A DNA stretch of 32,000 nt from Candidatus Baldrarchaeota archaeon (GTDB lineage: Archaea; Asgardarchaeota; Baldrarchaeia; Baldrarchaeales; DXJG01), in the NCBI GenBank assembly GCA_019056805.1, contig DXJG01000007.1, positions 1-32,000 on the forward strand, in the 5' to 3' direction. Below are positions 8,984-12,455 of this stretch, piece by piece; position 1 is the stretch's first letter, and each line of letters opens with the position of its first letter. A model generated the notes under the pieces. The model did no database searches and had not been told where the DNA came from. It was given only the letters and a program-made list of their open reading frames with translations. The translations under genes were made by a program, and so were the position numbers.

Positions 8984-9013
8984 TCAATTCACTTGAAATC
9001 CCGAGTGAATTGA
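8984..9013. promoter_or_regulatory. Perfect 10-bp inverted repeat (operator or 5'-UTR hairpin) abutting the SD of the 9023 gene
   Basis: TCAATTCACT (8984-8993), 10-nt spacer, AGTGAATTGA (9004-9013). SD GAGGGA begins at 9012. Confidence 0.55.
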
Positions 9014-9022
9014 GGGATAAAA

Positions 9023-11185
9023 ATGAATGAAATATTAATTTCAGCTGTTTTGATCCTTTTACCTAATATTTTAATAGCTTTGATTGTCCTTTTGATGAGA
9101 TATACTCGTTTTAAAGAAATTGCATTGCGTACAGGAATAGCCTTCTCTGCGTTTTGGCTAATATATTGTATTGGCTCAAGTATAGTTTTCAATTTGATCG
9201 GAGTTGAACCGAACTTAGTTTATTCTTCCCGAGATTTTTCAATATCAAACTTAAAGACTCTTGCAACTTATGTAGTATCTCTAGCAATATACTCTCTCAC
9301 TTTGACAATCACTTACCCGGTTTTCATGTTCCCATTTGTTTTCTTCCTTGCTCCTATAATAGCCGTTTTAATTCTACTTTACGCCGTTAGAGGAAGAGGA
9401 ATAAAAGAAATAACTTTTTGGATCGATTTAAAACCCAAAAGATTGATGGGGTGGGATGAAGAAAAAGAGGTTTTGAAACTTTTAATAGCTCTTCTACCTG
9501 TTTCTCTATATTTCTTAACATCATTACTACGAATATTGAAATACGAGGAAGATCCGCTTTCGGTTGGTAGTACCTTGTTGGGCTGGGTACTTGAAATTTA
9601 TATGCTTTTTCTTTTATCTTTCATAGTGGCGGTGAATCTTCTTTATACTTCTCGTGTTTATCACGGAAACAGGTTTGTAGGTGAAACTATTAGAAGAAAT
9701 ACCTTCAATAATCTCTTATCTATAAGTATTGTGCTTTCGTCCGTAAGTCTTATACTTTTTGTACAAATTTTCAAGGGAATCATCTACGTTTTCATATACT
9801 TCTCACTATATTACATTGCGATAACTATTATTTTCCTTTCATTCTTCAAAGTAATGGAACCAACTTCCGTGTATATCTTTGCTAAAATTCTAACTTTTAT
9901 GAGAGATGAAAATAAATTCCAAAGAATATTTGAAAAAAGAACGCTTGTACTAGGCATTATAGTTGGTATAGTGGTTACTTTAGCTTCTCTTTTCTGCACA
10001 TACGCTTTTATATCGGTTTATTGGAGCTACGTGAATATAGATCTAGATGCCCTTTTAGGTGAATGTTCTTTAGATAGCAGCCCCTCCCTGGAAATTTTGG
10101 AAATTTTAAACATACTTATTTCTTTAGGATCTTTACAAAGATTTTTTGAAATAGCAATTATAATGTTTCTTATCTATGCGCTCAGAAATATGGTTAAAAT
10201 AAAATTTTTCATAGCTGGCATATATGTAGGCATATTTAAGGTATTTGCTGACTATCCCCTTTTACAGCGCGCAACTAAAGCTTGGACTACAACTGTATTT
10301 TCAAGTGCGAACATTGGTTTCGTCAACATTTTAGTTCCAAGGTTTGCCTATCTAGGATTGACAACTTCTTATCTGGGTTCATCTGTCTATCAATTTATAG
10401 TCATACCTATACTTCTCCTTAAACTTTTAGCAACACTCTTAGTTTTTACTGTTTTAGTTTACTTAAAATTTGGTAAACTTGTTCAGTTTATCGATGTTGA
10501 AGCTGGACATCAAATAAAATATATATGTGAAGTTGAACCTGACTATATTACTCCTAACTCGTTGATAAAACTGAAAATAGCAAAAATATTTGAAGAAAAA
10601 ATTCCAGAAGATCTTTTACAGATCGTAGAATTCTTTAAGACAAAAACATACACTTTTCAAGAATTAAAAGAAAAATTAGGCATGCCTGATGAAAAATTAA
10701 AGAAAATTCTCCGATATCTGCATGAAAATTACATTATTGACATTTACGACTGCGAATTTAAAATAGTTACACCAGCACCAGTGATAGAAGGAATATATAT
10801 TGTGAATACAGACGGTATAGCTCTGTACAGTAAGTCATTTGGTGAAGTAAAAGTCGAACCTTTATTGATTTCAGGTATGCTTTCAGCAATAACTAGCTTC
10901 GTTAAAGAAACAACAAGAAGTCAACAATATTTGCAAGCTATTGATCACGGTGATGTCGTTCTCATGATAGAATATGGAGATGGATTTTTCGTCACCCTTT
11001 TGGCGAACAGAGAAACCCCTGAAATTCGTATGAAATTAAGGGAATTTGTTAGGCGATTCCAAGAAAAATACGGTGAAATTCTCAAACGATGGAGTGGAGA
11101 TCCCGGTGAATTTGAAAATGTTGAAAAATTAGTCAATGAAGTTTTTGAAATCACATCTACTAGTGAAGAAATAACCACTACCTAG
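9023..11185 (+). CDS. Polytopic membrane protein (~12 TM) with cytoplasmic winged-helix and C-terminal longin/roadblock-like domain
   Basis: About 480 aa of closely spaced hydrophobic helices, then LLQIVEFFKTKTYTFQELKEKLGMPDEKLKKILRYLHENYIID (wHTH pattern), then IEGIYIVNTDGIALYS...LISGMLSAITSFVKE...IDHGDVVLMIEYG...LREFVRRFQEKY...WSGD, the pattern of Asgard longin-like domains. Confidence 0.8.
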   Translation: MNEILISAVLILLPNILIALIVLLMRYTRFKEIALRTGIAFSAFWLIYCIGSSIVFNLIGVEPNLVYSSRDFSISNLKTLATYVVSLAIYSLTLTITYPVFMFPFVFFLAPIIAVLILLYAVRGRGIKEITFWIDLKPKRLMGWDEEKEVLKLLIALLPVSLYFLTSLLRILKYEEDPLSVGSTLLGWVLEIYMLFLLSFIVAVNLLYTSRVYHGNRFVGETIRRNTFNNLLSISIVLSSVSLILFVQIFKGIIYVFIYFSLYYIAITIIFLSFFKVMEPTSVYIFAKILTFMRDENKFQRIFEKRTLVLGIIVGIVVTLASLFCTYAFISVYWSYVNIDLDALLGECSLDSSPSLEILEILNILISLGSLQRFFEIAIIMFLIYALRNMVKIKFFIAGIYVGIFKVFADYPLLQRATKAWTTTVFSSANIGFVNILVPRFAYLGLTTSYLGSSVYQFIVIPILLLKLLATLLVFTVLVYLKFGKLVQFIDVEAGHQIKYICEVEPDYITPNSLIKLKIAKIFEEKIPEDLLQIVEFFKTKTYTFQELKEKLGMPDEKLKKILRYLHENYIIDIYDCEFKIVTPAPVIEGIYIVNTDGIALYSKSFGEVKVEPLLISGMLSAITSFVKETTRSQQYLQAIDHGDVVLMIEYGDGFFVTLLANRETPEIRMKLREFVRRFQEKYGEILKRWSGDPGEFENVEKLVNEVFEITSTSEEITTT

Positions 11186-11324: not shown

Positions 11325-12455
11325 TTGGGTTTTAAAGAATTAAATATTGGAGACAATGTTCTATCAGCAATTTACACGATGGGCTATGAAGAACCATCAC
11401 CTATACAAAAAGAGACAATACCATTGATTTTATCTGGAAGAGACGTAATAGGACAGGCGAGGAGTGGAAGTGGAAAAACAGCGGCTTTCGGTATACCTTT
11501 AGTAGAAATGACAGACCTAGCGGATCATAATGTTCAAGCTTTAATACTTACACCAACAAGAGAACTGGCAGAGCAAGTATCGAGGGAAATAGCTAACATC
11601 GGAAGAAAAAGAAGAGTAAAAGTATATGCCATTTATGGTGGCGTACCCATTGGACCTCAAATGGAAAAATTACGGAGAGGAATACATATACTTGTTGGGA
11701 CTCCTGGACGTTTACTTGATCATTTACGGAGAAGGACATTAAATCTTCGAAATGTTAGAGTGGTTGTTTTAGATGAGGCTGATAGAATGCTTGATATGGG
11801 CTTTATAGACGATATTTCAACAATTCTTTTCCATGCAAAAAACAGAAAACAAACGTTATTATTTTCTGCGACTATGCCTTACGAGGTAATAGAATTATCA
11901 AGAAAGTATATGAAGAACCCTATAGCTGTAAAAATTTCTCGAGACGAGTTAATTGTTGAACATATAGACCAATATTATGTTGAGACAAGTCGAAAAAATA
12001 AGTTAGAAGTTTTAATGAGAATCTTAGATGAACATCATGGGAAGAAGATCATGGTTTTCTGTGCAACAAAGAGAAAGACAACGCATGTCGCTTGGAAACT
12101 GAGAAAATCAAGATACTCTACACTTTGTTTGAATGGAGATATGACTCAAGGTCAAAGAAACTGGTCAATGGCAGTCTTTAGAGAACCAGGTAGCAAAATA
12201 CTTGTAGCGACCGACGTAGCTTCCAGAGGAATAGATGTACCCACGACAGATTTGGTGATAAACTTCGATATTCCAAGGAATTTGAAAGATTATGTTCATA
12301 GAATAGGTCGAGCAGGAAGATTTGACAGAAGAGGAAAATCTATAACACTAATAACACAAGAAGATCACTCATTCTTAAGAAGAATACTTAGATCTAACAA
12401 AATGGAAAAATACTATTTCAGCGGTAAACGTAAATTTGATAAACGTAGATTTTAA
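11325..12455 (+). CDS. DEAD-box ATP-dependent RNA helicase (CshA/DeaD-like core)
   Basis: Q motif GYEEPSPIQ, SGSGKT, PTRELA, GG, TPGR, DEAD, SAT, RGID, HRIGRAGR. TTG start with SD GGAG/GAGG. Confidence 0.96.
   Translation: MGFKELNIGDNVLSAIYTMGYEEPSPIQKETIPLILSGRDVIGQARSGSGKTAAFGIPLVEMTDLADHNVQALILTPTRELAEQVSREIANIGRKRRVKVYAIYGGVPIGPQMEKLRRGIHILVGTPGRLLDHLRRRTLNLRNVRVVVLDEADRMLDMGFIDDISTILFHAKNRKQTLLFSATMPYEVIELSRKYMKNPIAVKISRDELIVEHIDQYYVETSRKNKLEVLMRILDEHHGKKIMVFCATKRKTTHVAWKLRKSRYSTLCLNGDMTQGQRNWSMAVFREPGSKILVATDVASRGIDVPTTDLVINFDIPRNLKDYVHRIGRAGRFDRRGKSITLITQEDHSFLRRILRSNKMEKYYFSGKRKFDKRRF

Follow-up and report, generated by a model that had tools for sequence, protein, structure and literature searches.

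The P0001 Gene and Its Neighborhood

The window, that is, the whole stretch of 32,000 nucleotides that was analyzed, carries on its forward strand an open reading frame at 9023..11185 that starts with ATG, has no internal stop and encodes a protein of 720 amino acids, referred to here as P0001. Alignments with its orthologues (26–79% identity) begin at residue 1; the gene is intact, and its source is an Asgard archaeon of the Baldrarchaeia type. The following features were annotated, all on the forward strand:

8985..9012, +, inverted repeat (arms of 9 bp), probably within the 5' leader (found by inspection of the sequence)
9023..11185, +, complete gene of the membrane/winged-helix-like/longin protein P0001, 720 aa (open reading frame listing, translation, full-length Asgard orthologues)
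9023..10492, +, polytopic membrane domain, residues 1–490, with 11–12 transmembrane (TM) helices (hydropathy, AlphaFold2 model)
9455..9904, +, most conserved membrane core, residues 145–294, comprising TM5–TM8 and the cytoplasmic loops between them (alignments, per-segment conservation)
10280..10357, +, long beta-hairpin, residues 420–445, between TM11 and TM12 (DSSP of the AlphaFold2 model, conservation)
10595..10759, +, winged-helix-like linker unit, residues ~525–579 (secondary structure of the tail model, weak eS25 match, sub-threshold MarR/TrmB matches)
10781..11158, +, longin domain, residues 587–712 (AlphaFold2 model, Foldseek against PDB, VIA-align, profile match at the same coordinates)

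The inverted repeat reaches to 10 nt upstream of the ATG and into a Shine-Dalgarno-like GAGG motif (9012–9015). Judged from the sequence, the gene looks monocistronic, because a 321-bp spacer separates it from a divergent gene upstream and a T-rich stretch follows the stop codon. A comparison of gene neighborhoods shows that the neighbors of P0001 orthologues vary between lineages. In Hod/Thor-type genomes a conserved block of histone-deacetylase-family, profilin-like, cyclase-family, amidohydrolase and ABC genes surrounds the orthologue; we rejected this block as an operon because the flanking genes are oppositely oriented and neither the Baldr nor the Loki loci have it. The orthologue of Baldrarchaeum yapensis is closely packed on one strand with housekeeping genes of no evident relation to it (DUF2095, deoxyhypusine synthase and a sugar nucleotidyltransferase), a setting that gives no functional clue.

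A Membrane Domain with No Relative among the Folds Searched

Hydropathy places about 12 hydrophobic segments within residues 1–490, and the AlphaFold2 model of residues 1–500 (pLDDT 89.5, pTM 0.90) contains 11 long helices and a 24-residue beta-hairpin at 420–445. Because helix 74–122 contains two hydrophobic segments, the number of TM helices is given as 11–12, in agreement with the count of about 12 in an earlier note on this DNA. The distribution of Lys and Arg in the loops (positive-inside counting) suggests that the N-terminus lies outside and the C-terminus inside. The hairpin, in which W421 and R440 are conserved, is predicted from the model to be on the outer face. Conservation by segment is highest in TM5–TM8 and the cytoplasmic loops; in the orthologue alignments, the core of residues 145–294 has invariant P159, G187, G220 and E279 and near-invariant E147, W188, E191, Y263, S282 and K288. 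The outer loops are the least conserved segments of the membrane part, and we found no support for the membrane sensor that the earlier note had proposed.

The same note had recognized no transporter motif in the TM part. Likewise, no transporter, enzyme or receptor family was matched in PDB, AFDB, the ESM Atlas or Pfam. The best Foldseek hit in PDB had an E value of 0.17, with TM-scores of 0.08–0.20, and the best VIA-align score against 48,161 chains was Z 9.0 over 95 residues, representing helical hairpins only. AFDB clusters returned uncharacterized relatives but no named family, and the ESM Atlas gave TM-scores of 0.27 or less, its feature search likewise yielding no known fold or named family. 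No Pfam family was matched in any of 40 members of the P0001 family, and Pfam together with NCBIfam gave nothing usable for the whole protein, the tail unit or these 40 members. Weak AFDB rows over residues 27–300 (TM 0.24–0.32) named zinc-ribbon and GDPD-membrane-domain proteins and were not counted as evidence. As modeled with confidence, the membrane domain would be a fold without relative among those searched (PDB, AFDB clusters, ESM Atlas).

It is conceivable that this domain is the working part of P0001, being a transporter, channel or enzyme of an undescribed fold, and that the winged-helix-longin tail is only a regulatory or oligomerization appendage. Cytoplasmic regulatory domains occur on many transporters. 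Such a role would agree with the compact and confident membrane model, and also with polar and charged residues that vary hardly or not at all and are located inside the helices of TM5–TM8 or at their ends (E147, E191, the serine ladder S235/S239/S242, Y263, E279 and K288). Moreover, many Asgard lineages possess an orthologous, single-copy member of the P0001 family, and the N-terminal module of ~300 residues is found also in shorter proteins that lack the tail. However, these shorter proteins may be fragments of metagenome contigs, no solved transporter, channel or enzyme fold was similar in Foldseek or VIA-align, and the 40 members again offer no Pfam family. Internal sequence repeats are common in secondary transporters, but none was found when parts of the membrane domain were compared by hhalign. 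Furthermore, nowhere in the protein is conservation in the orthologue alignment higher than in the longin domain, which argues against a dispensable appendage. We consider this explanation somewhat unlikely.

A Longin Fold at the C-Terminus

In the AlphaFold2 model of the tail (pLDDT 89.4), residues 587–712 adopt the topology beta-beta-alpha-beta-beta-beta-alpha-alpha with no helix ahead of the first strand (DSSP, in tail-model numbering: strands 89–96, 101–106, 140–142, 147–153 and 156–162; helices 114–132, 167–189 and 195–209). A Foldseek search of PDB with the tail model gave 79 matches at E ≤ 0.001, with a probability of 1.00 for the top 50. The highest VIA-align score is to TRAPPC4 (Z 14.4; 122 residues, 2.4 Å; model range 86–213), and the superposition on longin structures spans the whole domain including the C-terminal helices in both VIA-align and Foldseek, whereas roadblock structures align over only ~100 residues (Z 11–12) and omit both of these helices. 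The Robl_LC7 profile (PF03259), which matches 10 other loci of the same genome, has no match in P0001, nor does P0001 show the alpha-beta-beta-alpha-beta-beta-beta topology with an N-terminal helix that is typical of roadblocks. The structural comparison of the model thus confirms the C-terminal domain as a true eukaryote-type longin fold, and the longin-like domain that had been placed at 10784–11145 stands with slightly wider borders and as longin rather than roadblock.

At the sequence level, P0001 has no match to the Pfam longin families Longin (PF13774), Fuz_longin_1 (PF19036) and Sybindin (PF04099), and PDB searches with the tail sequence and its profile gave chance-level rows only. Among P0001 paralogues, the sub-threshold Pfam matches are Longin (E 0.0015), Fuz_longin_1 (E 0.013) and Sybindin (E 0.035). 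The family has its own signature, consisting of S-G-M-x-S-A-I-T-S-F in the first helix, an I-D-H-G-D turn and a W-x-G-D-x-x-x-F tail. A homodimer prediction with two copies of the domain scored 0.32 against a mark of 0.42, a value that speaks neither for nor against self-pairing.

Comparison with Known Longin Systems

Longin-based GEF/GAP complexes (TRAPP, Mon1-Ccz1, CPLANE, GATOR1, FLCN-FNIP) alter the nucleotide state of small GTPases, usually as a longin heterodimer. Over ~120 residues the P0001 longin domain shares fold and topology with TRAPPC4/Trs23 (2j3t_D, 2zmv), Fuzzy of CPLANE (9rs8, 7q3d; Z 13.0–13.6, the higher value for its longin 1) and Mon1-Ccz1 (5ldd, 9rs7; Z 11.3–11.9), at 2.4–3.6 Å for the three systems, but the sequence identity is only 10–17%. 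Moreover, these longins belong to soluble multi-subunit complexes, whereas that of P0001 forms the C-terminal end of a membrane protein with many passes. Closer in this respect are the longin SNAREs Sec22b (1ifq, Z 13.0), VAMP7 (4afi, Z 12.6) and Ykt6 (3bw6, Z 11.5) and the SRX domain of SRP receptor alpha (7obq_y, 6frk_y; Z 11.2), which are membrane-held, as is P0001. The SNAREs and SRX, however, carry the longin domain at the N-terminus and are anchored by a single C-terminal helix or through a partner protein, and P0001 has neither a SNARE motif nor the GTPase domain of the SRP receptor. SRX binds the membrane-anchored Arf-like GTPase SR-beta, and this pair sets a precedent for contact at a membrane between a longin-type domain and a small GTPase.

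There is also a conceptual likeness to SLC38A9-Ragulator-Rag (6wj2), in which, as might apply to P0001, a multi-pass protein is connected with a small-GTPase platform of roadblock/longin type; the LAMTOR subunits match the core of the P0001 longin domain at Z 11–12 in VIA-align. SLC38A9 belongs to a known amino-acid transporter family, and its N-terminal tail binds Ragulator-Rag non-covalently. In P0001, by contrast, the platform is fused and is a longin rather than a roadblock, the membrane fold matched no transporter, and the gene has no linked Rag-like GTPase. Within the literature and databases searched, we found no characterized protein with the architecture of P0001, as the earlier note had stated.

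Membrane-Proximal Longin Domains across Asgard Archaea

To the survey of this architecture that had been called for, the answer is an Asgard-only distribution: the P0001 family occurs in 89 of 301 genomes searched, mostly in single copy, and an orthologue is present in the cultured Lokiarchaeum ossiferum (CP104013.1). The longin domain itself is far more abundant, being found in 40 of 41 Asgard genomes with 4–58 copies each (7 in the source genome). Its carriers include surface proteins and multi-pass membrane proteins, and in 48 of 104 carriers that are not orthologues of P0001 no more than 45 residues, in most cases 5–30, separate the last TM helix from the start of the domain. Other fusion partners of the domain are Arf/Rag/Ras-like GTPases, HerA, KaiC-like ATPases and an MIT-like domain. 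It is thus an Asgard-wide family of membrane-proximal longin domains with GTPase and ATPase fusions.

As a class, longin fusions of Asgard archaea are known from the literature, in which many lineage-specific ones have been reported (Liu et al. 2020/2021, bioRxiv 10.1101/2020.10.19.343400; Tran et al. 2024, PMC10933270). The word "transmembrane" occurs in neither of these two texts, and no transmembrane longin fusion is mentioned in them. The Asgard longin-GTPase fusions belong to the same sequence family as the P0001 longin domain.

Links to Small GTPases

The earlier note had suggested small-GTPase signaling. In four closed genomes, 7 of 75 domain matches lie within 1 kb of a Ras-family match (1.3 expected; only 1 of 5000 shuffles was as high), and 6 of these 7 pairs are longin-GTPase fusions in the same open reading frame; with fusions removed, the excess of GTPase genes at 1–5 kb from a longin domain is not significant. 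One fusion of 298 aa, which bears an Arf/Rag domain, passes Pfam Fuz_longin_1 (27.8 bits against a cut-off of 26.1), and its longin domain aligns end to end with that of P0001 (27% identity, E 1e-13) and has both signature motifs in common with it. Furthermore, on a Hodarchaeota contig the gene of a single-pass receptor whose longin domain is juxtamembrane is immediately preceded, on the same strand, by a Rag-like GTPase gene, and a 990-aa receptor of similar kind in the source genome has a Rag-like GTPase at a distance of 1.4 kb. A 314-aa longin protein of the source genome, considered as a further fusion, was rejected, its C-terminal part being HTH-like and without G motifs.

For P0001 itself the picture differs. 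None of the 12 small-GTPase genes of the source genome is near the P0001 gene, the closest being 44 kb away, and neither is any of its 10 Robl_LC7 genes; no GTPase domain was found among the 163 nearest homologues of P0001. In a weakly resolved domain tree, the only domains that group with the P0001 longin domain are those of its orthologues, and the GTPase-fused clade is separate. Longin domains also work without GTPases, for example in SNARE regulation and as adaptor cores. The GTPase connection is therefore supported for the longin domain family but not for P0001, because P0001 has no GTPase neighbor, falls in a separate longin clade and in one lineage neighbors a HerA-longin gene.

This last neighbor raises another explanation, that P0001 serves a ring ATPase as its stator or membrane anchor, the two docking through matching longin domains; the ATPase would be of HerA type in that lineage (f21, Hodarchaeales-type) and a different one here. 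At all five f21 loci the orthologue (853–882 aa) is convergent with a HerA-longin gene at a distance of 7–83 bp. The HerA-longin protein (~875 aa; Pfam DUF87, E 1e-19) bears the same longin domain at residues ~505–655 and is present in full length in all 21 f21 genomes, and the tail-to-tail arrangement fits longin-longin pairing. Other carriers have a KaiC-like ATPase directly after the domain. However, the full-length HerA-longin protein is found in f21 only, the f21 orthologues differ by an insertion of ~100–150 residues after the first TM helices, and genes in convergent orientation are not co-transcribed. In addition, the source genome has only ordinary HerA genes (~540 aa), and none of its 7 longin carriers is an ATPase. 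An ATPase anchor is quite improbable for P0001.

The Winged-Helix-Like Unit

Between the membrane part and the longin domain, the tail model shows a helix-strand-helix-helix-strand unit at residues ~525–579, at much the same place as the winged helix that had been put at 10604–10750. The assignment to this fold is only partly verified: besides the secondary-structure pattern, it has a weak eS25 match in the PDB sequence/profile search of the tail and sub-threshold Pfam matches to MarR/TrmB (E 0.02–0.13) in 2 of 10 orthologues, with none for P0001 and no Pfam HTH family reaching threshold. DNA-binding winged helices of the MarR/TrmB/ArsR type have an above-threshold profile match and a basic contact surface; neither was found here, the unit being acidic (pI 5.0 in P0001 and below 6.2 in 21 of 30 orthologues) and the least conserved soluble part of the protein in the orthologue alignment. 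That P0001 is a membrane-tethered transcription regulator whose winged helix binds DNA while the longin domain senses a ligand or partner, as the HTH-like unit and its sub-threshold matches might hint, is hardly probable at all against an acidic, poorly conserved unit that no HTH profile matches.

A Candidate Docking Platform at the Membrane

We infer, with a probability of roughly 45%, that the longin tail of P0001 is a docking platform at the membrane for a GTPase or for a longin/roadblock partner, and that the membrane core is coupled to the tail. The true longin domain on its inner tail makes P0001 a testable candidate for a membrane site at which small GTPases or further longin proteins dock. 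The domain of 11–12 helices would hold the acidic winged-helix-like spacer and the longin domain at the cytoplasmic face; the longin domain would pair with a soluble partner, whose activity would thereby be tethered to the membrane. The likeliest partner would be a small Ras/Arf/Rag-like GTPase, or a longin/roadblock protein that itself handles a GTPase or ATPase. Any coupling between the membrane domain's state and the tail would likely take place in the conserved polar core of TM5–TM8 and the adjoining cytoplasmic loops.

Asgard genomes are rich in small GTPases and longin/roadblock proteins that resemble those of eukaryotes. These proteins lack eukaryotic lipid anchors, and those tested in human cells stayed diffuse (PMC10933270). 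As a conserved single-copy membrane protein with a longin domain predicted at the inner face, P0001 is a clonable candidate for the missing membrane link, and the orthologue in the cultured L. ossiferum makes pull-downs and localization feasible. The juxtamembrane longin tail, common on Asgard surface proteins, moreover offers a rule whose validity can be checked phylum-wide. In a bolder form, which we regard as unlikely, P0001 would be a receptor or transporter of new fold whose state reaches a small GTPase, or a HerA-type ATPase in some lineages, via the longin domain fused to it, as part of a general juxtamembrane-longin output system of Asgard archaea. If this were true, dozens of surface and multi-pass proteins per Asgard genome would share the juxtamembrane longin domain as their cytoplasmic output, and the system would be a prokaryotic forerunner of the membrane-anchored longin/roadblock platforms in eukaryotes, such as SR-alpha/SR-beta and Ragulator-Rag.

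The protein and its gene

For P0001, the 720-residue product of ORF 9023-11185 (+), the best-supported mechanism is that of a membrane-embedded longin docking platform for a soluble partner (probability roughly 0.45), in which the membrane domain would display the longin domain at the inner face and the partner would dock on it. The ORF is intact (ORF listing and translation) and belongs to a 1.92-Mb assembly that is 91% complete, in whose coordinates the window is C15:1-32000; in homologue searches the nearest relatives carry the labels Baldrarchaeia or Baldrarchaeota. The ATG start is supported because the orthologues (26-79% identity) align from residue 1 onward. Upstream, across a 321-bp spacer, lies a divergent gene for a 2150-aa surface protein, and a T-rich tract follows the stop, with a DEAD-box helicase gene 139 bp beyond; from the spacer and the tract, the gene therefore looks monocistronic. 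A TATA-like AT-rich stretch lies ~75 nt upstream of the ATG, and two further features adjoin the gene:

8985-9012: inverted repeat with 9-bp arms and one mismatch beyond them, 10 nt 5' of the ATG, overlapping a GAGG motif
11325-12455: DEAD-box RNA helicase (CshA/DbpA-like; Pfam DEAD, E 2.7e-52), directly downstream of P0001

The inverted repeat could occlude translation initiation. In a second Baldrarchaeota contig (L026), too, the orthologue has the helicase gene as its neighbour; in other lineages it does not.

An exhaustive HMMER search returned 36 representatives at E<=1e-30, mostly full-length relatives of P0001. The membrane-domain profile has matches in 89 of the 301 Asgard genomes searched, in most of them a single one, and is sharply split by family (e.g. 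48/68, 20/21 and 6/7 vs 0/76, 0/29 and 0/19). When two longin-domain motifs were used to seed a scan of 185,579 species genomes, every record returned was Asgard, from Baldr-, Hod-, Hermod- and Thorarchaeota, Lokiarchaeum ossiferum and Harpocratesius. All named database entries read 'hypothetical protein', with no Pfam domain.

The membrane domain

Hydropathy shows ~12 hydrophobic segments in residues 1-490. The AlphaFold2 model of residues 1-500 (alignment of 40 sequences; pLDDT 89.5, pTM 0.90) has 11 long helices, one of which (74-122) contains two hydrophobic segments, and a beta-hairpin of 24 residues (420-445) between the last two. Lys/Arg-rich loops (28-36, 123-147, 210-226, 276-304 and 389-394) alternate with acidic or variable loops, a distribution compatible with an N-out, C-in topology that would place the tail in the cytoplasm. 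Pfam and NCBIfam gave no family match for P0001 or any of 40 relatives. With the membrane model as query, the best Foldseek match in the PDB had E 0.17 (TM-scores 0.08-0.20), and VIA-align against 48,161 chains found only helical hairpins, its best Z of 9.0 over 95 residues being inside the tool's stated noise for helical models. AFDB clusters held uncharacterised relatives only, the ESM Atlas gave no match, and no internal sequence repeat was detected. The earlier note had described about 12 TM helices with no recognised transporter motif, and this description is borne out by the hydropathy and in these searches.

In alignments of the P0001 family, conservation is highest in TM5-TM8 and the intervening cytoplasmic loops, with P159, G187, G220 and E279 invariant and E147, W188, E191, Y263, S282 and K288 nearly so, and variability is greatest in the outer loops and TM9-TM12. 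Such a pattern is not what an extracellular ligand sensor would lead one to expect, and the idea of the same note that P0001 could couple a transmembrane stimulus to a GTPase is not supported for its sensing part. In the main rival to the docking platform, the membrane domain would do the work as a transporter or an enzyme, and the tail would only regulate it; we consider this possible but rather unlikely.

The C-terminal longin domain and its family

The tail model (residues 500-720, alignment of 79 sequences; pLDDT 89.4) consists of a helix-strand-helix-helix-strand unit at residues ~525-579 followed by a beta-beta-alpha-beta-beta-beta-alpha-alpha domain at residues 587-712. Foldseek gave 79 PDB matches for the tail at E<=0.001, every one longin or roadblock. 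In VIA-align, longin domains superpose over 114-122 residues, C-terminal helices included (Z 14.4 and 2.4 A for TRAPPC4, 13.6 for Fuzzy, 13.0 for Sec22b, 12.7 for zeta-COP and 12.6 for VAMP7), and roadblock proteins (MglB, LAMTOR and Asgard Rb3) align over ~100 residues with Z 11-12. The Robl_LC7 profile has no match in P0001 and matches ten other loci of the same genome. The fuller longin superposition and the missing Robl_LC7 match mark the domain as longin and not roadblock, which narrows the longin/roadblock-like assignment made previously to the longin fold.

The exhaustive HMMER search also returned 1297 representatives at E<=0.001, most of which match residues ~588-712 only, and the longin-domain profile has matches in 40 of 41 Asgard genomes, with 4-58 copies each. 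The host genome has seven carriers, P0001 and the following:

single-pass surface protein, 1272 aa
C15:50954-53926 (-): single-pass Ig-domain surface protein with juxtamembrane longin domain, 990 aa (locus L011)
6-TM protein, 450 aa
C6:163274-163957 (-): soluble MIT-like + longin protein, 227 aa (locus L008:5275-5958; N-terminal Pfam MIT match, E 0.001, below threshold)
longin + HTH-like protein, 314 aa
203-aa protein

Among 104 non-orthologous carriers, 48 have a longin domain beginning <=45 residues, mostly 5-30, after the last membrane helix; ~65, ~220 (KaiC-like ATPase) or ~277 residues lie downstream of such membrane-proximal domains. In four single-pass metagenomic proteins (P0097, P0100, P0105 and P0107), a KaiC/RecA-like ATPase domain comes straight after the juxtamembrane longin domain (KaiC-type Pfam match in P0105, E 4e-21). 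Among Asgard membrane proteins, then, the longin domain is a standard module, placed close to the membrane on its cytoplasmic side.

Six giant longin proteins (P0052, P0068, P0082, P0120, P0129 and P0154; 1600-2400 aa), mostly with no predicted TM helices and with no Pfam annotation, have two or three domain copies ~500 residues apart. Several small Asgard genomes have orthologues of the MIT-like + longin protein (227-245 aa); in some of these genomes the gene shares a contig with the membrane-longin gene, at a distance of 12-20 kb. Through this protein the longin family may be connected with ESCRT-III-type filaments.

Gene context and partners in other lineages

In Baldrarchaeia-type loci the orthologue is flanked by a surface protein and a DEAD-box helicase, and in Hod/Thor-type loci a conserved block of unrelated opposite-strand genes lies near it. 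In the Hod/Thor-type loci L029-L047, a histone-deacetylase-family gene and a profilin-like gene (~135 aa; Pfam Profilin, E 2.7e-4) are kept just upstream of the orthologue on alternating strands; this arrangement probably reflects synteny between related genomes and not an operon.

In f21, a Hodarchaeales-type lineage, the 853-882-aa orthologue has an insertion beyond its first helices and in 5/5 loci (L058-L062) is convergent, tail-to-tail, with a HerA (DUF87) ATPase 7-83 bp away. This ATPase (~875 aa) carries the same longin domain at residues ~505-655, and the full-length HerA-longin protein is present in 21/21 f21 genomes; none of the other families searched has it. The pairing suggests that P0001 could serve as an ATPase anchor; no HerA-longin protein was found in the host genome of P0001, and for that genome we think this role improbable.

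The wHTH reported in the earlier note survives as a winged-helix reading of the unit modelled at residues ~525-579, on the secondary-structure pattern and weak matches to eS25, MarR and TrmB. This unit shows little conservation and is acidic (pI 5.0 in P0001, <6.2 in 21/30 orthologues), and a role in spacing or protein contact is preferred to one in DNA binding; that P0001 is a membrane-tethered transcription factor is very improbable.

GTPase link of the longin family

No GTPase domain was found among the 163 closest homologues. In four closed genomes, two of which are close kin so that the fusion cases are not all independent, 75 domain hits were compared with 97 Ras-family hits: 7/75 lie <=1 kb from a GTPase hit vs 1.3 expected (1/5000 shuffles as high). 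In six of these seven, one ORF of 282-352 aa encodes both a longin domain, at the N-terminus, and an Arf/Rag/Ras-like domain, at the C-terminus; with fusions set aside, the excess of GTPases 1-5 kb from a longin domain is not significant in these genomes. One fusion passes Pfam Fuz_longin_1 and aligns over its whole length with the P0001 domain (27% identity, E 1e-13), with both signature motifs in common. In a quick, weakly resolved maximum-likelihood tree of 132 domains, the P0001 orthologues form one group (SH-aLRT 93) and the GTPase fusions sit in a separate clade with other N-terminal-longin proteins. The GTPase link is thus a property of the longin family, and may or may not extend to P0001's branch.

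GTPase genes also occur near an orthologue at one locus, and Rag-like GTPases beside single-pass longin receptors in two neighbourhoods:

L055 (G001:C1:119000-131000), closed 1.4-Mb Asgard genome of a small-genome lineage: orthologue of 735 aa, with a 364-aa protein containing a central Arf-like GTPase domain 0.8 kb upstream, a 187-aa Ras-family GTPase 2 kb upstream, and an opposite-strand HD-domain gene between the GTPase genes and the orthologue
L054, Hodarchaeota contig: Rag-like GTPase, 77-aa ORF and 799-aa longin receptor, closely spaced in one same-strand run
C15:55320-56246 (-), host genome, locus L011: 308-aa Rag-like GTPase (Pfam Gtr1_RagA, E 3.7e-27), 1.4 kb from the 990-aa receptor, with two opposite-strand genes intervening

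Published work already describes Asgard longin/roadblock expansions, longin-GTPase fusions and numerous longin architectures specific to single lineages (10.1101/2020.10.19.343400; PMC10933270; PMC11188069); as far as the searchable text of this literature goes, no mention of a transmembrane longin fusion was found. Asgard longin fusions are thus known as a class, and P0001 is a variant whose membrane domain matches no known fold in the searches made. Because of what the longin domain family is fused to, the soluble partner docking on P0001 would most likely be a small GTPase or another longin or roadblock protein.
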